From sequence record OR352939.1: a stretch of DNA of 64,000 nucleotides. One strand, written 5' to 3'. Below the pieces are notes generated by a model that was not told the origin of the DNA, searched no databases, and saw nothing but the letters and a program-made list of their open reading frames with translations. Below, piece after piece: positions 54,110 through 64,000 of this stretch. The stretch is from Escherichia phage AV109. Position 1 is the stretch's first letter; the number at the start of each line of letters is the position of its first letter. A program made the position numbers and the translations under genes.

Positions 54110-54117
54110 TATAAATA
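54110..54117 (+). promoter_or_regulatory. T4-type late promoter TATAAATA for gene 34
   Basis: exact TATAAATA 31 nt upstream of the gene 34 ATG. Confidence 0.7.
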
Positions 54118-54147: not shown

Positions 54148-57100
54148 ATGGCCGACATCAAACGTAAGTTCAGAGCCGAAGACGGTCTGGACGCCGGTGG
54201 CGACAAGATTGTTAACGTAGCATTAGCCGACCGTACAGTAGGTACTGATGGCGTAAACGTTGACTTCCTGGTACAAGAAAACACCGTTCAAGTATATGAT
54301 TCTACACGTGGATATAACAAAGGATTTGTTGTTCTTTATGACAACCGTTTATATCAAGCAATAAATGATATCGTGTCTCCTTCCGGGGCATTTAACCTTT
54401 TACAATGGCGTGCAGTTCGTACTGATACACAATGGATAACTGTCGCTTCTGGGACTTATCAACTTTCTTCAGGTGAATCGATTTCGGTTAACACTGGTGC
54501 CGGCAATGATATGGTTTTCACGTTGCCAAATACTCCTGTTGATGGTGATACTGTTGTTTTGGCTGATATTGGTGGAAGAACCGGGACAGTTAAAGTACAG
54601 ATTAACGCGTCTGTACAGAGTATTTTAAACTTTAGAGGTGAACAAGTTCGTACGGTTTTAATGACGCGTCCGCGTTCACAACTATTGTTTGTGTTTAGTA
54701 ATCGTTTGTGGCAGATGTATATTACCGATTATGGTAAAGAATCAATCACTGTTACACCTGCGACACCATATCAAGCACAAGCAAATGATTTTATCGTTCG
54801 TCGTTTTACTAGTGCAGCACCAATCAACATTACACTTCCACGTAATGCTAACAATGGTGATATAATCAGCCTAGTCGATTTAGATAGATTAAACCCACTG
54901 TATCATACAATTGTTAAAACATTTGATGATACAACGTCTATTGGTGAAGTCGGGACTCATATTGCCGAAGGCAGAAATGACTCTGACGCGTTTTTTGTTT
55001 TTGATGCCGCAAATAGTTTATGGCGTATATGGGAAGGCGACCAGAAATCGCGTCTTCGTATTATCCGTGCGGATTCAAATATTCGTCCAAATGAAGAAGT
55101 TCTTATTTTTGGCACAAATAACGCTACAGCCGGAACTATTAATCTTACGCTGCCTTCCGGAATTTTGAGTGGTGACACTGTTAAAATTTCAATGAACTAC
55201 ATGCGTAAAGGCCAAACAGTAAAAATTAAAGCTGCCGAAGGTGATACAATTGCTTCTTCTGTCGCATTACTTCAGTTCCCTAAACGTTCTGAATATCCAC
55301 CTGATGCTCAATGGGTTTCTGTTACTGAACTAGAATTCAATGGCACTACTTCATATGTTCCTGTGTTAGAATTAGCGTATATCGAAGACACTGTTGCTGG
55401 TACACGTTATTGGGTTGTTCAACAAAACGTCCCTACAGTAGAACGTGTTGATGCTGGAACTGATGCTACACGAGCTCGTTTAGGTGTTATTGCTCTTGCT
55501 ACTCAAGCGCAAGCAAATGTTGATTTAGAGAATACTCCAGCTAAAGAAGTGGCTATTACTCCGGAAACATTGGCAAATCGTACAGCAACTGAAGCTCGAC
55601 GTGGTATCGCTAAAATTGCTACAACAGCACAAGTTAACCAGAATTCCACAGCATCATTTGTGGACGATACTATTGTTACGCCTAAAAAACTAAATGAGCG
55701 TACAGCAACTGAAACTCGTCGCGGTCTTGCTGAAATTGCTACTCAGACCGAAACCGATGCTGGTCTTGATGACACAACGATTATTACACCTAAGAAATTG
55801 CAGGCACGTCAGGGTTCTGAAACACTATCGGGTATAGTTAAATATGTATCAACTACTTCTGCTACTCCTGCTGAAACTCGTGGGGCTGCAGGCACTAACG
55901 TTTATAATAAAACCGTAAATAATTTAACTATTTCTCCTAAAGCCCTTGACCAATATAAAGCAACTTATGCTCAACAAGGTGCAGTAATTTTAGCTGTTGA
56001 AAGTGAAGTAATTGCTGGTCAATCCCAAGCAGGTTATTCTCACGCTGTAGTAACTCCTGAAACACTACATAAGAAAACTTCTACTGATGGACGTATTGGT
56101 TTAATTGAAATTGCTACGCAAGCAGAAACTAATGCTGGGACTGATTATACACGTGCAGTAACGCCTAAGACGTTAAATGATAGGAAAGCTACGGAAGGAT
56201 TATCCGGCATAGCCGAACTTGCTACGCAAGTCGAATTTGATACTGGAACTGATGATACTCGTATCTCGACTCCACTGAAAATTAAAACTCATTTTGATTC
56301 TTCTGACCGTACCAGTGTTAATTCTGATTCCGGACTTATTGAAGAAGGAACCTTGTGGAACCATTATACTCTTGATATTTCTAAAGCAAATGAAACACAA
56401 CGTGGTACACTTCGCGTAGCGACCCAGGCAGAATCTAATGCAGGAACTTTAGATGATGTTCTTATTACTCCTAAAAAGCTTTTAGGGACTAAGTCCACTG
56501 AAACGTCTGAAGGCGTAATTAAGGTTGCTACTCAGGCTGAAACTGTAACAGGAACTTCTGCTAATACTGCTGTATCTCCTAAGAATTTAAAATGGATTGT
56601 CCAGAAAGAACCAACATGGGCTGCTACTACAGCAATTCGCGGATTCGTTAAAACTTCATCCGGTTCTATTACATTCGTTGGTAATGATACAGTTGGTTCA
56701 ACACAACCTTTAGAATCATATGAGAAAAATAGCTATGCAGTATCACCATATGAATTAAACCGTGTATTAGCAAATTATTTGCCGTTAAAAGCAAAAGCTG
56801 TAGATAGTAATTTATTGGATGGTCTAGATTCATCTCAGTTCATTCGTAGGGATATTGCACAGACGGTTAATGGTTCACTAACCTTAACCCAACAAACGAA
56901 TCTGAGTGCCCCTCTTGTATCATCTAGTACTGCTACGTTTGGTGGTTCAGTTTCGGCAAATAGTACATTGACTATTTCTAATACGGGAACAGCTACTCGA
57001 CTGATTTTTGAAAAAGGACCTCAGTCCGGAACAAATCCTGCTCAAACGATGACTATCAGAGTTTGGGGAAATGAATTTGGTGGTGGTTCAGATACAACAC

Positions 57101-58023
57101 GTTCTACTGTATTTGAAGTTGGTGATGAAACATCTAATCACTTTTATTCTCAACGTAATAAAGCTGGGAATATAACGTTTAGCATTAATGGTACTGTGAT
57201 GCCAATAAATGTTAACGCTTCAGGCACGTTAAATGCGAATGGTGTAGCAACATTTGGTCGTTCAGTTACAGCCAATGGTGAATTCATTAGCAAGTCTGCA
57301 AATGCTTTTAGAGCAATAAACGGTGATTATGGATTCTTTATTCGTAATGATGCCTCTAATACCTATTTTTTGCTCACTGCAGCCGGTGATCAGACTGGTG
57401 GTTTTAATGGATTACGCCCATTATTAATTAATAATCAATCCGGTCAGATTACAATTGGTGAAGGCTTAATCATCGCCAAAGGTGTTACTATAAATTCAGG
57501 CGGTTTGACTGTTAACTCGAGAATTCGTTCTCAGGGTATTAAAACATCTGATTTATATACTCGTGCGCCAACATCTGATACTGTAGGATTCTGGTCAATC
57601 GATATTAACGATTCAGCCACTTATAACCAGTTCCCAGGTTATTTTAAAATGGTTGAAAAAACTAATGAAGTGACTGGGCTTCCATACTTAGAACGCGGCG
57701 AAGAAGTTAAATCTCCTGGTACATTGACTCAGTTTGGTAATACACTTGATTCACTTTACCAAGATTGGATTACTTATCCAACAACTCCAGAAGCACGTAC
57801 CACTCGCTGGACACGTACATGGCAGAAAACTAAAAATTCTTGGTCAAGTTTTGTTCAGGTATTTGATGGAGGTAACCCTCCTCAACCATCTGATATTGGT
57901 GCTTTACCATCTGATAATGCTACAATGGGGAATCTTACTATTCGTGATTTCTTAAGGATTGGTAATGTCCGCATTATTCCAGACCCTGTGAATAAATCTG
58001 TTAAATTCGAGTGGATTGAATAA
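54148..58023 (+). CDS. 34: long tail fibre proximal subunit (T4 gp34-like)
   Basis: 1291 aa; size, position and repetitive Thr/Ala-rich fibre sequence. Confidence 0.95.
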   Translation: MADIKRKFRAEDGLDAGGDKIVNVALADRTVGTDGVNVDFLVQENTVQVYDSTRGYNKGFVVLYDNRLYQAINDIVSPSGAFNLLQWRAVRTDTQWITVASGTYQLSSGESISVNTGAGNDMVFTLPNTPVDGDTVVLADIGGRTGTVKVQINASVQSILNFRGEQVRTVLMTRPRSQLLFVFSNRLWQMYITDYGKESITVTPATPYQAQANDFIVRRFTSAAPINITLPRNANNGDIISLVDLDRLNPLYHTIVKTFDDTTSIGEVGTHIAEGRNDSDAFFVFDAANSLWRIWEGDQKSRLRIIRADSNIRPNEEVLIFGTNNATAGTINLTLPSGILSGDTVKISMNYMRKGQTVKIKAAEGDTIASSVALLQFPKRSEYPPDAQWVSVTELEFNGTTSYVPVLELAYIEDTVAGTRYWVVQQNVPTVERVDAGTDATRARLGVIALATQAQANVDLENTPAKEVAITPETLANRTATEARRGIAKIATTAQVNQNSTASFVDDTIVTPKKLNERTATETRRGLAEIATQTETDAGLDDTTIITPKKLQARQGSETLSGIVKYVSTTSATPAETRGAAGTNVYNKTVNNLTISPKALDQYKATYAQQGAVILAVESEVIAGQSQAGYSHAVVTPETLHKKTSTDGRIGLIEIATQAETNAGTDYTRAVTPKTLNDRKATEGLSGIAELATQVEFDTGTDDTRISTPLKIKTHFDSSDRTSVNSDSGLIEEGTLWNHYTLDISKANETQRGTLRVATQAESNAGTLDDVLITPKKLLGTKSTETSEGVIKVATQAETVTGTSANTAVSPKNLKWIVQKEPTWAATTAIRGFVKTSSGSITFVGNDTVGSTQPLESYEKNSYAVSPYELNRVLANYLPLKAKAVDSNLLDGLDSSQFIRRDIAQTVNGSLTLTQQTNLSAPLVSSSTATFGGSVSANSTLTISNTGTATRLIFEKGPQSGTNPAQTMTIRVWGNEFGGGSDTTRSTVFEVGDETSNHFYSQRNKAGNITFSINGTVMPINVNASGTLNANGVATFGRSVTANGEFISKSANAFRAINGDYGFFIRNDASNTYFLLTAAGDQTGGFNGLRPLLINNQSGQITIGEGLIIAKGVTINSGGLTVNSRIRSQGIKTSDLYTRAPTSDTVGFWSIDINDSATYNQFPGYFKMVEKTNEVTGLPYLERGEEVKSPGTLTQFGNTLDSLYQDWITYPTTPEARTTRWTRTWQKTKNSWSSFVQVFDGGNPPQPSDIGALPSDNATMGNLTIRDFLRIGNVRIIPDPVNKSVKFEWIE

Positions 58024-58031
58024 GAGGTATT

Positions 58032-59159
58032 ATGGAAAAATTTATGGCTAAGTTTGGACAAGGATACGTCCAAACGCCATTTTTATCGGAAAGCAATTCA
58101 GTACGATTTAAATTAAGCATAGCGGGCTCTTGCCCGCTATCAACATCTCCTGCTTATATTAAGTTCCAGGATAATCCACTTGGGTCCCAGGTTTTTTCCG
58201 TTGGATTAAACGTTCGTGTAATAAATCCTACAACGGGTGCAGTAGTTGAATCTAAGACATATAATTTCTCTACTGAAAACGACGCCACGTCAAGTGCATT
58301 TGTTACTTTCATGGACACATATGCTTCAAATTTTATATTTGCTCTTGTTACTAACGCTAAAACAAACTTTCCGCCAGAAGTTCTTGCATGGTTTAATAAA
58401 GCCGGAAGTTCTGCTATTCCATTAGCTCAACAAGTTTTAAATATAGTGGACATTTCTTATTCGGCATTTTATATTTCTGGTAAGAATGCTATAGCACTAG
58501 AACATATTAAGTATAGTAATAAGAAAACTTCAACCGACTATAGTACACCACTTGATGTTGTGTACGACACGATCGATGATATTGGTGCTACCGGCTTCCC
58601 TAGTCGTACGTACGAATCGACAGACACATTTTTATCTGCTGTTGGAGGTACTAATAACGAAATTAAAAGGATGCCTACAACATCCCTTATTACACCTCTC
58701 GCTGGGTATAAATTGAAGCCTGGAGATTTCCTTTATATGAAATTCCAACTAATGGCAGATGCTGATTTGTTAGCACAAGGGACGACACGACTTTCTATTC
58801 GTTTCTTTAAATCTCCTTCTACTTCACCTATTTCATTTAAGGATACAAACTTTGATGGGGCTGCAGGTGAATGGAAGATATATGAAGACTACATAGAAAT
58901 TCCTGCCGGTGCTGACGGGTTCACGATTTATTGTTATCGTACGGCCCCAGTCGGGCAAGGCGGATTAAGAAACGTTATATTCACTGAAGTGTCATGTAAT
59001 GGAAGCGTTTCAAAACCTGCTGAGTTTGGTATAAATGGTATTCGTGTAAATTATGTTTCAGAATCTTTAAGTGCCCCAGACATAATGACATTACCTACTC
59101 AATCTTCAACTGATACCGGTAAGGTATTTGGACAAGAATTTAAAGAAGCATCAGAATAA
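58032..59159 (+). CDS. 35: long tail fibre hinge protein (T4 gp35-like)
   Basis: 375 aa directly after gene 34. Confidence 0.9.
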   Translation: MEKFMAKFGQGYVQTPFLSESNSVRFKLSIAGSCPLSTSPAYIKFQDNPLGSQVFSVGLNVRVINPTTGAVVESKTYNFSTENDATSSAFVTFMDTYASNFIFALVTNAKTNFPPEVLAWFNKAGSSAIPLAQQVLNIVDISYSAFYISGKNAIALEHIKYSNKKTSTDYSTPLDVVYDTIDDIGATGFPSRTYESTDTFLSAVGGTNNEIKRMPTTSLITPLAGYKLKPGDFLYMKFQLMADADLLAQGTTRLSIRFFKSPSTSPISFKDTNFDGAAGEWKIYEDYIEIPAGADGFTIYCYRTAPVGQGGLRNVIFTEVSCNGSVSKPAEFGINGIRVNYVSESLSAPDIMTLPTQSSTDTGKVFGQEFKEASE

Positions 59160-59189: not shown

Positions 59190-59197
59190 TATAAATA
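59190..59197 (+). promoter_or_regulatory. T4-type late promoter TATAAATA for gene 36
   Basis: exact TATAAATA 25 nt upstream of the gene 36 ATG. Confidence 0.7.
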
Positions 59198-59221: not shown

Positions 59222-59884
59222 ATGGCCGATTTAAAAGCTGGTAGTACAACTGGCGGTGCTGTTATATGGCATCAAGGTAATTTCCCTTTAATGCCAGCAG
59301 GTGATGACGTCCTGTATAAAACGTTTAAACTCTATTCAGAATATAATAAACCACAAGCTGCTGATAATGATTTCGTTTCTAAAGCTAATGGTGGTACTTA
59401 CGCTGCAACTGTTCGATTTAACGAAGGCGTACATGTTCCTACTGTAGGTAGTAGTCAACAGTGTGGTGTTTATCCAGGTAACGGTGATGCAGCTACTTTT
59501 GATATGGCAAATATTGACATCGTTTCGTGGAATGGTATTGGTTTTAAGTCATCACAAGGTTCAGCAGACCGAACTGTTGTTATTAACGCTCGTAATGGTG
59601 ATATTAGTACAAAAGGCGTTGTGACAGCAGTAGGTCAAATAAGAAGTAATGCAGTTGCTCCAGTTGCAGCAAATGATCTCACAAGAAAAGATTATGTTGA
59701 TGGACGAATAAATATTGTTACGGATAACGCAAATTCCCGTGTATTGCGTTCTGGCGATACCATGACTGGTACTTTAACAGCACCAAACTTTTTCTCACAG
59801 AATCCGGCATCCGAGGCTAATCATGTTCCACGATTTGATCAAATCGTAATTAAGGATTCTGTTCAAGATTTCGGCTATTATTAA
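59222..59884 (+). CDS. 36: long tail fibre distal connector (T4 gp36-like)
   Basis: 220 aa, position before gene 37. Confidence 0.9.
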   Translation: MADLKAGSTTGGAVIWHQGNFPLMPAGDDVLYKTFKLYSEYNKPQAADNDFVSKANGGTYAATVRFNEGVHVPTVGSSQQCGVYPGNGDAATFDMANIDIVSWNGIGFKSSQGSADRTVVINARNGDISTKGVVTAVGQIRSNAVAPVAANDLTRKDYVDGRINIVTDNANSRVLRSGDTMTGTLTAPNFFSQNPASEANHVPRFDQIVIKDSVQDFGYY

Positions 59885-59892
59885 GAGGACTT

Positions 59893-62800
59893 ATGGCTAC
59901 ATTAAAACAGATACAATTTAAAAGAAGCAAAGTAGCAGGAGTTAATCCTACTGCAGCACAATTAGCCGAAGGCGAATTAGCGATAAACTTAAAAGATCGA
60001 ACTCTTTTTACTAAAGATGACCTCGGTAATATTATTAGCCTAGGCTTTGCTAAGGGTGGGGATATTAACGGTAATGTAACTCAAACTGGCGATTATTTAC
60101 AAAACGGCACGTATAATCTCAATGGAAATCAGTTTGTTTACGCAGGAAAATACATTGAATTTTTACCTAAAACCACTGGAAATGGCGCTTGGGCTAACCA
60201 ACATTCGAATAAAGCCCCTATCTTTACAGATTTAAGTTCAACTACTTCTGTTTCAGAATACCATCCACTGATTAAACAACGTTATAAAGATGGAACTTTT
60301 TCTGCTGGTACATTAGTAAACGAAGGTAGTTTTAAATTCCATTATATTGATGAAACCGGGACTTCAAAATACTGGACTTTTAATCGAAACGGTAATTTTC
60401 AAGTTGATTCCGGAAGTTTATTAGTATCTAATGGATATTTAGTTACTCAAAGTAATATTGAAACTAAAGCTGGTTCTTTAATTGGTCCTAAAGTTATTAC
60501 CAAAAATATCAATGTGAGTACTAAATCTTGGGACACTAATATTGATACTGCATATGATTTAGTTTCATTACCGACTTGGCACTATACTCCAACCGAAACA
60601 GATTTGGATACTAATGGTATAAACTACCTTCGTAAATTCCGCGGACATGTTTCTTCTGCTATTTTCCATGAAGTTGCTGATGCTCGTTCAGGTAAACCAC
60701 AGAATATTTCGTATTGGACGGGACGTAATGCTGAAGTTTATCAATGGTCTTATACCACAGACGGGCGTATGTCTGTTGCTAATTCGATAGGTATAGGTCT
60801 TGCTGATGTTGGTGACCAAGGACGTTATCCATTGGTTTCGTTTGGTAAAGGTATTGCAATTGGTGACAATGATACTGGTATTAAATGGGTTCGTGACGGC
60901 GTTATTGATTTGATTGCTAACGGTGTTTCGACCGGTACAATAAACAGTACTGGTGTTAATAGTACAAAGAAATTAACAGTTGGGTATAGCCGTGATTCTG
61001 GATCTACTTGGGATTATCCGAATACCAACCAGGCAATGTTCAGCGCTAGAACAGAAGTTGATGGTAATAATAACGGTGATGGTCAAACTCACATTGGTTA
61101 TAGTTCTAATGCTAAGATGTATCATTATTTCCGTGGCGCTGGCCGCATGGCCATCAGCATGGGTGAAGGTCTTATTGTCGAACCAGGAATTCTTGATATT
61201 AAAACCGGTTCAAATTCGTTAAATTTGCGTGCTGATGGTACCATCGCTTCTGTTCAAACGTTAAAACTTAATAATGGATTATATTTTAATGGTGATGGAA
61301 CTAATGCTTCTCTAATTTTTAAAGCAGCTTCAGGTATTGATGGTACTAAGCAAATTTTGTGGGAAGGCGGTACTCGTGCAGGTCAGAACAAAAGTTATGT
61401 GACCGTGAAAGCATGGGGTAACTCATTTAATGCTACTGGTGATAAAGCTCGAGAAACCGTATTTGAGGTTTCTGATGGCCAAGGTTATTATTTCTATTCT
61501 CAACGCGTAGCTCCGACCGGTTCTGAAACTACAGGCCCTGTTGTAACTCAGTTCAATGGACAGGTTAATGCTAGAGGAAGCTTAATAACCGACGGAAGTC
61601 TTAGAGTTAACGGATTAAGCACTCTAGTTGGCAACGTTACAATGAATAATGGATTGTTTGTTCAAGGCGGTTCTTCTATTACTGGACAAGTTAAAATTGG
61701 TGGAACAGCTGATGCATTAAGAATTTGGAATGCTGAATACGGTGCTATTTTCCGTCGTTCTGAAGATAAGCTTTATATTATTCCAACTCCGCAGAATGCT
61801 GGTGAATCAGGTGGTATTTCTAATTTACGTCCGTTCTATATTGCATTAAGTAATGGTAAAGTTTCTATGGATCATGATGTAGATATCGGCGGCGGCAGAT
61901 TTAAAGTAGAAGCTGCTGGAACTACGGCTGGTCAACGCATAACAGTAAATATGGCATCAGATGCTATTAGAATAAATGCTCCAACACAAGAGTCTTCTAA
62001 CTTCATTCAAGGACGTAAAGCAGATGTTCCGAAATGGTATTTAGGTATTGGCGACGGCGGCAACGTCGTTCGTATGCACAGTTACACATATTCACATGGT
62101 ATTGCATTAAACTCTGATTCTGTCGATATTACTAAACCTCTTAAAGTCGGAAATGCCCAACTAGGAACCGATGGCAATATCACGGGCGGTTCCGGTAACT
62201 TTGCTAACCTAAATACCGCATTAAACCGCAAGGTAAATTCAGGATTTGTAACATACGGTGCAACTGCCGGATGGTATAAATTCGCCACAGTAACGATGCC
62301 ACAATCTACTTCTACTGTTTCATTTACTGTAACTGGTGGTAAAGGATTTAATACTGGACTGTTTACACAGTGTGCTATAACAGAAATTGTTCTTCGTACT
62401 GGTAATGACCACCCAATAGGTTTAAACGCGGTGATGTATACCAGAACAGCTGCGGGTTTTACTGATATTGCTGTAGTTAATACCTCAGGAAATACATATG
62501 ATGTCTATGTTGAATCTGGCACTTATGCCAACCAATTAGCTTATACCTGGCATGCAGTTGATAATGCTACCGTAAAAGTTATTGGTGCTTTTGGTCCGAC
62601 TCAAGACCCGGTAGATTCTTTGCCGGTTGATTATGTTAAAGGCCAGGTAGCTAACATGCTTAACAACCTGGTAGACACAGGTAAAGTAAAACGTTATGAA
62701 GCCGATTCTGAAATAGCTATTAATAACCCAACCGGTATTCGTATCAGAAGTAACTATGATAAAACTGGTTCTGTGGCTACAATGTTACGAAATGATGGCG

Positions 62801-63666
62801 GTAGTTTTTATATTCTGTTTACAGATAAAAATGCCACCGATGGCGCAGCAACTGTTAATGGTGATTGGAATAGTAAACGTCCTTTCGCAATTAACTTAAC
62901 AACCGGCGAAGTGATAATGAATAATGGCATAGCTGTTCGCAGCGCTGCTTTATTCTATAATAGCATAAACGTCAAAGATAATGGTTCTATTAACTTTGAT
63001 AAGTCCGGTGCGAACCCAAGAAACATGCGTATATTCCACGCAGGTGATGGTACGCGAGGAAACCGCCTTGAAATTTCTGATGAAACTAACTATATTGCTT
63101 ACTTCCAAAAATTACCTGGTGGTCAAAACCAAGTTTCATTCAATAGTGCTACACTTTCTGGATTAACACAGTGCAATCAATTTGGTGTTAACACAACAAA
63201 CGCACTTGGTGGAAATAGTATAACGTTTGGTGATAATGACACCGGTATTAAGCAAAATGGCGATGGATTATTAGACATATATGCGAACAACGTGCAAGTG
63301 TTCCGTTTCCAAAACGGCGATTTGTACTCATATAAAAATATAAATGCTCCAAACGTTTATATTCGTTCTGATATTCGTTTAAAATCCAACTTTAAGCCTA
63401 TCGAAAATGCACTTGATAAAGTTGAAAAACTTAACGGTGTCATTTACGATAAAGCTGAATACATCGGTGGAGAGGCAATTGAAACTGAAGCGGGTATTGT
63501 GGCTCAAACGTTACAAGACGTTTTACCAGAAGCTGTCCGTGAAACAGAAGATAGCAAGGGTAATAAAATACTCACTGTTTCTTCTCAAGCCCAGATTGCT
63601 CTTCTGGTTGAAGCTGTGAAAACACTTTCTTCTCGTGTAAAAGAACTTGAATCTAAACTTATGTAA
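59893..63666 (+). CDS. 37: long tail fibre distal subunit (gp37) with C-terminal intramolecular-chaperone domain
   Basis: 1257 aa; C-terminal ~100 aa carry the S74-type signature SDIRLKSN..NGVIYDK..; followed by a gp38-like adhesin gene. Confidence 0.93.
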   Translation: MATLKQIQFKRSKVAGVNPTAAQLAEGELAINLKDRTLFTKDDLGNIISLGFAKGGDINGNVTQTGDYLQNGTYNLNGNQFVYAGKYIEFLPKTTGNGAWANQHSNKAPIFTDLSSTTSVSEYHPLIKQRYKDGTFSAGTLVNEGSFKFHYIDETGTSKYWTFNRNGNFQVDSGSLLVSNGYLVTQSNIETKAGSLIGPKVITKNINVSTKSWDTNIDTAYDLVSLPTWHYTPTETDLDTNGINYLRKFRGHVSSAIFHEVADARSGKPQNISYWTGRNAEVYQWSYTTDGRMSVANSIGIGLADVGDQGRYPLVSFGKGIAIGDNDTGIKWVRDGVIDLIANGVSTGTINSTGVNSTKKLTVGYSRDSGSTWDYPNTNQAMFSARTEVDGNNNGDGQTHIGYSSNAKMYHYFRGAGRMAISMGEGLIVEPGILDIKTGSNSLNLRADGTIASVQTLKLNNGLYFNGDGTNASLIFKAASGIDGTKQILWEGGTRAGQNKSYVTVKAWGNSFNATGDKARETVFEVSDGQGYYFYSQRVAPTGSETTGPVVTQFNGQVNARGSLITDGSLRVNGLSTLVGNVTMNNGLFVQGGSSITGQVKIGGTADALRIWNAEYGAIFRRSEDKLYIIPTPQNAGESGGISNLRPFYIALSNGKVSMDHDVDIGGGRFKVEAAGTTAGQRITVNMASDAIRINAPTQESSNFIQGRKADVPKWYLGIGDGGNVVRMHSYTYSHGIALNSDSVDITKPLKVGNAQLGTDGNITGGSGNFANLNTALNRKVNSGFVTYGATAGWYKFATVTMPQSTSTVSFTVTGGKGFNTGLFTQCAITEIVLRTGNDHPIGLNAVMYTRTAAGFTDIAVVNTSGNTYDVYVESGTYANQLAYTWHAVDNATVKVIGAFGPTQDPVDSLPVDYVKGQVANMLNNLVDTGKVKRYEADSEIAINNPTGIRIRSNYDKTGSVATMLRNDGGSFYILFTDKNATDGAATVNGDWNSKRPFAINLTTGEVIMNNGIAVRSAALFYNSINVKDNGSINFDKSGANPRNMRIFHAGDGTRGNRLEISDETNYIAYFQKLPGGQNQVSFNSATLSGLTQCNQFGVNTTNALGGNSITFGDNDTGIKQNGDGLLDIYANNVQVFRFQNGDLYSYKNINAPNVYIRSDIRLKSNFKPIENALDKVEKLNGVIYDKAEYIGGEAIETEAGIVAQTLQDVLPEAVRETEDSKGNKILTVSSQAQIALLVEAVKTLSSRVKELESKLM

Positions 63667-63667
63667 A

Positions 63668-63685
63668 AGAGGGCTTCGGCCCTCT
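63668..63685 (+). terminator. UUCG-loop stem-loop AGAGGGC-TTCG-GCCCTCT between genes 37 and 38
   Basis: perfect 7-bp stem right after the gene 37 stop, T5 run a few nt downstream. Confidence 0.45.
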
Positions 63686-63696
63686 AAGGATTTTTA

Positions 63697-64000
63697 ATGG
63701 CAATTGTAGGTGTTCCTGGCTGGATTGGCGAATCTGCCGTAAATGAAACTGGACAACGTTGGATGGATGCTGCAATGAAAGCAGTTCGTGTTTCAGTTCC
63801 TGGTTGGATGAGTTCAATGGCTGGGCAATCTAAAGAGATTCATTATAGCATTGGTGCTAGCAATTCTTACAATAAAGACACACTAATAAACTGGATAAAA
63901 GCCCAAGGAAGCACTCCTGTTGTTATTACTATTACAGGAAATATTGTTTCTCAATCTACCGGTGTTCCATGCTTAGATTTTCCTAGCTCATTAACTAATG
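63697..64000 (+). CDS. 38: receptor-recognising adhesin gp38 (T2-type), 5' partial
   Basis: N-terminus MAIVGVPGWIGESAVNETGQRWM matches recalled T2-type gp38; runs off the window end. Confidence 0.85.
   Translation, partial: MAIVGVPGWIGESAVNETGQRWMDAAMKAVRVSVPGWMSSMAGQSKEIHYSIGASNSYNKDTLINWIKAQGSTPVVITITGNIVSQSTGVPCLDFPSSLTN

Follow-up and report, generated by a model that had tools for sequence, protein, structure and literature searches.

Organization of the gene 37 locus

The window analyzed here is a 64,000-nucleotide stretch of DNA from Escherichia phage AV109 (OR352939.1), in which the T-even long-tail-fiber operon has its standard layout: g34 (54148..58023), g35 (58032..59159), g36 (59222..59884), g37, and g38, followed by the holin gene t. 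Positions 62800–64000 match Escherichia phage AV114 (OR352944.1) at 100% identity and with equal coordinates; AV114 is a member of the Straboviridae (Tevenvirinae, genus Mosigvirus) that comes from pig waste and has an ESBL E. coli as its isolation host. Gene 37 (59893..63666, + strand), assigned from the list of ORFs and from the Pfam matches gp37_trimer, Gp34_trimer, and Peptidase_S74, encodes the putative 1257-residue precursor of the long-tail-fiber distal subunit, and the ORF is labeled ‘tail fiber’ in OR352944.1. The translated protein ends in ...NAPNVYIRSDIRLKSNFKPIENALDKVEKLNGVIYDKAEYIGGEAIETEAGIVAQTLQDVLPEAVRETEDSKGNKILTVSSQAQIALLVEAVKTLSSRVKELESKLM*. The TCT codon at 63367–63369 specifies Ser1159 and lies in frame (63367 − 59893 = 3 × 1158), so that 63367..63666 comprises 99 codons and the TAA stop. 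A frame-shifted ORF of 70 residues inside this region (63407..63619) was set aside as spurious, as the differences from phage T2 track the gp37 frame and five out of six are synonymous.

Gp37 contains internal repeats. The motif (I/F)GDNDTGIK(W/Q)..DG..D..AN.V occurs twice, once in the proximal third of the protein (residues ~320–345, about 60850–60930) and once shortly before the tip (residues ~1108–1133, about 63214–63290), and a second repeat, RPF.I.L..G.V.M, is found at residues ~645 and ~996. Both are probably recurring β-helix modules of T-even fibers.

Between g37 and g38 lies an intercistronic hairpin of the C(UUCG)G type (63668..63685, + strand), in which a perfect 7-bp stem closes a UUCG loop (AGAGGGC-UUCG-GCCCUCU, −13.4 kcal/mol). 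It begins one base past the g37 stop codon and leads directly into AAGGA, the Shine-Dalgarno sequence of g38; T2 has the identical hairpin. The hairpin was flagged as terminator-like, and the T-run that follows it overlaps the start of g38. It probably belongs to the stable C(UUCG)G intercistronic hairpins common in T-even phages, acting as an mRNA stabilizer or a partial terminator. Exact copies of the T4-type late-promoter motif TATAAATA precede g34 (54110–54117) and g36 (59190–59197); of the 17 copies in the window, against an expectation of about 7.6, most lie on the + strand. A motif search of the window found no exact TATAAATA within g37 or upstream of g37 or g38. The sequence TATAAATG at 63339, considered as a late promoter for g38, is only a near match, and σ70-like matches inside g37 are at background level. 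Since no exact late-promoter motif precedes g38, this gene is probably co-transcribed with g36 and g37 on a single late transcript, as far as promoter motifs indicate.

A Peptidase_S74 domain at the C-terminus of gp37

The extreme C-terminus of gp37, the last 99 of its 1257 residues, is an S74-type intramolecular chaperone (IMC) domain. The Pfam profile PF13884 (Peptidase_S74, ‘Chaperone of endosialidase’) aligns over its full length (positions 1–58 of 58) with residues 1159–1216, encoded by 63367..63540 on the + strand, at 56.9 bits (E = 2.5e-15) against a gathering cut-off of 22 bits, and the first aligned residue is Ser1159. By sequence comparison, this match is well above chance level. A preliminary description of this DNA had placed a domain of about 100 residues here, proposed the Pfam comparison as a check, and quoted the motifs SDIRLKSN, NGVIYDK, and LPEAVRE, all three of which are present in the gp37 C-terminus; the domain it described is thus confirmed, at 99 residues. 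The IMC family itself was defined in 2007–2010. The same protein carries the gp37_trimer and Gp34_trimer Pfam domains, and the 60 residues upstream of the S74 domain align with the β-helix tip of Salmonella phage S16 gp37 (6F45_A).

Searches against PDB sequences point in the same direction. With a single sequence, phmmer retrieved S16 gp37 (6F45_A, E = 5e-14 over 159 residues), in an alignment that begins in the GDNDTG β-helix tip, passes SD(I/R)R(L/I)K, and ends in the C-terminal helix, and the ICA domain of MYRF (7DC3, E = 1e-3). These two were the only real matches of the single-sequence search, as hits to haemagglutinin HA2 (E of 0.03 or higher) were discarded as coiled-coil noise. A profile built from an alignment of homologues recovered 6F45_A and 7DC3_A again and added two entries, 8JOV_1, a phage tail fiber, and 3GUD_A, the IMC of the GA-1 neck appendage. 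The underlying alignment, which also served as the basis of structure modeling, is shallow, with 11 homologues. One database protein (P0006, 176 residues, on an 885-bp contig) shares 96% identity with a portion of the IMC and also carries the unrelated domain PF01594; its coverage of the query is 39%, and it was excluded from the alignment as the probable product of a chimeric metagenome assembly. By tblastn with a 119-residue query, the domain was found in 1578 phage records, 67 of which are at least 99% identical over the query.

Predicted fold of the gp37 chaperone domain

An AlphaFold2 monomer model of gp37 residues 1139–1257 has a mean pLDDT of 72.7. Block values are 75–92 over model residues 31–119 and fall below 50 for the first 26 residues, which include the cut site. 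The modeled secondary structure consists of a short helix (H35–41), four strands, and a 26-residue C-terminal helix (H93–118, block pLDDT 83–92). This last element corresponds to residues 1231–1256 (63583..63660, + strand) and is predicted to form a central trimeric coiled coil, in keeping with solved IMCs, which have a trimeric helical bundle at their centre (PMC4690869). A Foldseek search of the PDB placed the MyRF ICA domain (7DC3) first, with a probability of 1.00 and a TM-score of 0.59, followed by the endosialidase ‘Intramolecular Chaperone’ (3GW6, probability 0.91); matches below rank 4 were regarded as noise. The T5 IMC (4UW8) was not among the PDB matches of the gp37 model in this search. 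As modeled in the monomer, the gp37 domain matches the IMC fold, a small α/β unit followed by a long C-terminal helix.

Catalytic dyad, predicted cut site, and probable processing

The motif SDIRLK at the start of the domain contains a Ser-x4-Lys dyad formed by Ser1159 and Lys1164. In the alignment of 11 homologues, the Lys1164 column (K26; codon AAA, 63382..63384, + strand) is invariant, and the columns of Ser1159, Asp1160, Arg1162, and Leu1163 are nearly so. The spacing of five residues from Ser to Lys is the one seen in Ser1264/Lys1269 of T5 pb1 (PMC4690869) and S578/K583 of MYRF (PMC3742443), for which a Ser-Lys dyad mechanism has been described; the same dyad is found in endosialidases. 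In T5, a Ser-to-Ala mutation stops cleavage, and only cleaved pb1 is competent for receptor binding (PMC4690869). The serine encoded at 63367, already singled out as the site of autoproteolysis in the preliminary description, indeed aligns with the scissile, nucleophilic serine of this family, with Lys1164, the predicted general base, five residues further on.

The position of the cut can be predicted from homologous fibers. According to PMC7917993 and PMC7289586, the last 113 residues of S16 gp37 constitute an IMC, and autocleavage at DLNVS^SDRRIKK exposes the docking surface for gp38; in the homologous fibers of Yersinia (fPS) phages, the predicted cut is DVYIR^SDGRLKI (PMC7917993). The corresponding gp37 sequence aligns with both as NVYIR^SDIRLKS. 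In K1F and T5, the serine departs on the released chaperone (PMC4690869). By analogy with S16, K1F, and T5, the scissile bond of gp37 is therefore predicted to lie N-terminal to the serine, between Arg1158 and Ser1159 (codons CGT TCT, 63364..63369, + strand), Ser1159 being position 1 of the S74 profile and leaving with the chaperone. Mature gp37 would then consist of residues 1–1158, and its predicted tip, residues 1091–1158 (63163..63366, + strand), would end in ...NAPNVYIR and, from the comparison with T2, S16, and fPS phages, would form the docking region for gp38. In the K1F and T5 mechanism, an arginine from a neighboring subunit completes the oxyanion hole, so that cleavage signals correct folding of the trimer (PMC4690869; PMC3742443). 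The arginine in question is Arg1250 in T5 (PMC4690869); Arg1158 and Arg1138 are candidates for this role in gp37, in a segment with pLDDT below 50 in the monomer model.

We infer autoproteolysis of this gp37 from its homologues. The 99-residue IMC differs from that of T2 gp37 at a single position (Ser1247 versus Ala; 98 of 99 residues identical), with six of 300 nucleotides changed (five synonymous differences and one non-synonymous). The T2 gp37 precursor is reported to undergo proteolytic processing, after which gp38 caps it (Drexler, Riede & Henning 1986, as cited in PMC3157838); S16 gp37, as noted above, is reported to cleave itself. The same evidence bears on how the domain might be removed. 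It could act as a folding chaperone that is excised by a host protease or another phage protease, or that depends on gp38 or gp57A, rather than by autocatalysis; the original T2 work, as cited in PMC3157838, demonstrated proteolytic processing and left the protease unnamed, and T-even fibers are known to need gp57A (PMC7289586). We nevertheless consider this improbable, because the Ser-x4-Lys dyad is intact here and conserved in homologues, and because the homologues from K1F, T5, GA-1, S16, and MYRF are reported to be self-cleaving, with the serine substitution blocking the reaction in T5. Still less probable is a degenerate, non-cleaving IMC that stays in the mature fiber, with gp38 binding elsewhere, given that the catalytic residues are present and that the domain is nearly identical to one whose parent protein in T2 is reported to be processed.

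Gp38 is a T2/S16-type adhesin

The gene downstream of g37, g38 (63697..64000 in the window, with the full gene at 63697..64488 in the record; + strand), encodes an adhesin of the T2/S16 type, identified by Pfam, by its match to the S16 adhesin, and by its identity to T2 gp38. The full-length protein matches GP38 (PF05268) over the whole profile (positions 1–218 of 218, 234 bits) and also Gp38_N (PF21721). A match to the S16 adhesin 6F45_D (E = 3.7e-48) takes in the poly-Gly tracts, and Trp9, Trp22, and Trp37 align with the three Trp ‘prongs’ of S16. In S16, as described in the literature, monomeric gp38 docks on gp37 through three conserved N-terminal tryptophans, and a similar docking geometry may be expected here.

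T2 and T4 served as controls. In T2, gp37 has the S74 domain at residues 1243–1300 and gp38 matches both GP38 and Gp38_N. T4 gp37 instead contains PF07484 (Collar) and PF03335 (Phage_fiber) and no S74 domain, and T4 gp38 has no Pfam match at all. Neither PF07484 nor PF03335 was found in the gp37 studied here by the same Pfam search. The gp38 adhesin matches and the two controls lead to a T2/S16 architecture for the fiber tip, as judged from domain content, with none of the features that define a T4-type tip. The preliminary description had made the same distinction and had identified gp38 as the adhesin, and both points hold. A T4-like division of labor, in which gp37 is the adhesin and the downstream product merely an assembly chaperone, can claim the name ‘tail assembly protein’ given to gp38 in OR352944.1 but is scarcely credible, as this protein belongs to two families from which T4 gp38 is absent, GP38, matched here over the full length, and that of the S16 adhesin 6F45_D, and as the T4 gp37 tip is of the Collar/Phage_fiber type rather than S74. 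The label, which implies a T4-type role, is misleading and seems to be an annotation mistake inherited from T4 nomenclature.

Proposed maturation of the fiber tip

We regard it as highly probable that gp37 is a precursor whose S74 IMC cleaves itself at Arg1158-Ser1159, after which the fiber tip is capped by gp38. Gp37 would be synthesized as a 1257-residue chain in which Ser1159–Met1257 form the Peptidase_S74 IMC. Three copies of the IMC would join through the C-terminal helix, and the resulting trimer, in its presumed chaperone role, may help to nucleate the trimeric β-helical fiber from its C-terminal end and keep the chains in register. After correct folding of the trimer, Lys1164 would activate Ser1159 for attack on the Arg1158-Ser1159 bond, and the IMC trimer would be freed, leaving ...NAPNVYIR as the mature fiber end. 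The threefold tip exposed in this way would be capped by a single gp38, whose N-terminal three-helix domain, with Trp9, Trp22, and Trp37, would make the contact, and gp38 would take over receptor recognition. More speculatively, the IMC trimer might serve some separate purpose once it has been released.

The intact dyad, the near-identity to a T2 protein that is processed, and the clear identity of gp38 as an adhesin leave the three alternatives discussed above, removal by another protease or cofactor, retention of the IMC, and a T4-type tip, improbable even when taken together. For AV114, self-cleavage and capping by gp38 would mean that host recognition proceeds via gp38 and not via gp37. 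For annotation, mature gp37 is to be modeled as residues 1–1158.

A T2-like cassette within divergent genes

The similarity to T2 is unevenly distributed. Over its C-terminal 167 residues, gp37 shares 95% identity with the corresponding end of T2 gp37; identity outside the tip is about 50%, and 53% over the N-terminal 660 residues. Gp38 is 75% identical to T2 gp38 over residues 1–148 and almost identical over residues 1–50. At the nucleotide level, a block of ~640 nt (~63181–63820) has 88–100% identity to T2 and is flanked on both sides by sequence with 50–70% identity. In it lie the sequences for the predicted docking tip and the IMC of gp37, the UUCG hairpin, and the sequence for the attachment domain of gp38; on the evidence of these identities, they make up a single T2-like cassette embedded in genes that diverge elsewhere. 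The pattern suggests recent horizontal exchange between Mosigvirus and Tequatrovirus lineages.

A further, tentative idea is that the cassette is a dedicated ‘linker’ for homologous recombination across the genera Mosigvirus and Tequatrovirus, through which gp38 modules and fiber shafts are re-assorted independently; we consider this possible but rather doubtful. The reading is mildly new at most. A recombination linker for T-even adhesins is said to have been largely proposed by Tetart in 1998. Much of the same idea appears in Trojet et al. 2011, who described ‘lock-and-key’ co-inheritance of subtypes of the gp37 C-terminus and the gp38 N-terminus, and mismatched gp37 and gp38 N-termini have been reported to be incompatible. 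The T2-like cassette is consistent with both observations. In phage engineering, the conserved unit of tip, IMC, and gp38 N-terminal domain offers a natural point at which adhesins of T2-type phages could be exchanged.

Comparison with known systems

The identification of the gp37 IMC is correct but already known in substance. It belongs to textbook T2-type fiber biology, in which processing of T2 gp37 dates from 1986, and the link between the IMC and gp38 was reportedly made explicit by the S16 gp37-gp38 structure in 2018. The finding leaves tail-fiber biology as understood unchanged, and its use lies mainly in annotation.

Among known systems, phage T2 comes closest, with the same Pfam architecture and a (near-)identical IMC, hairpin, and gp38 N-terminal domain. 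It differs in that gp37 of the phage studied here is 84 residues shorter, in the divergent receptor-binding part of gp38, and in belonging to Tequatrovirus rather than Mosigvirus. In Salmonella phage S16 (6F45; Dunne et al. 2018), as described in other papers, a trimeric β-helix tip is likewise followed by an S74 IMC cut before SD(R/I)R(I/L)K, and the docking tryptophans of gp38 align with Trp9, Trp22, and Trp37; the S16 IMC, however, has 113 residues instead of 99, is preceded at the cut by DLNVS instead of NVYIR, and is of modest identity.

More distant members of the family share the chemistry and depart from gp37 in what the cleavage serves. K1F endoNF (3GW6) and GA-1 gp12 (3GUD) have in common with gp37 the Pfam family, the Ser-Lys dyad, and the C-terminal helix bundle, but in them the protein matured by the IMC is an enzymatic tailspike or an appendage, whose cleaved end has no adhesin cap. 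T5 pb1 is a fiber protein with an autocleaving C-terminal IMC and the Ser1264/Lys1269 dyad; its IMC is longer, at 133 residues, and bears long β-hairpin ‘tentacles’, and the mature tip binds the receptor directly. The ICA domain of MYRF/MrfA (7DC3), the best structural match to the gp37 model, shares the dyad as well, but it belongs to a eukaryotic membrane-bound transcription factor, in which cleavage frees a DNA-binding fragment instead of maturing a fiber.
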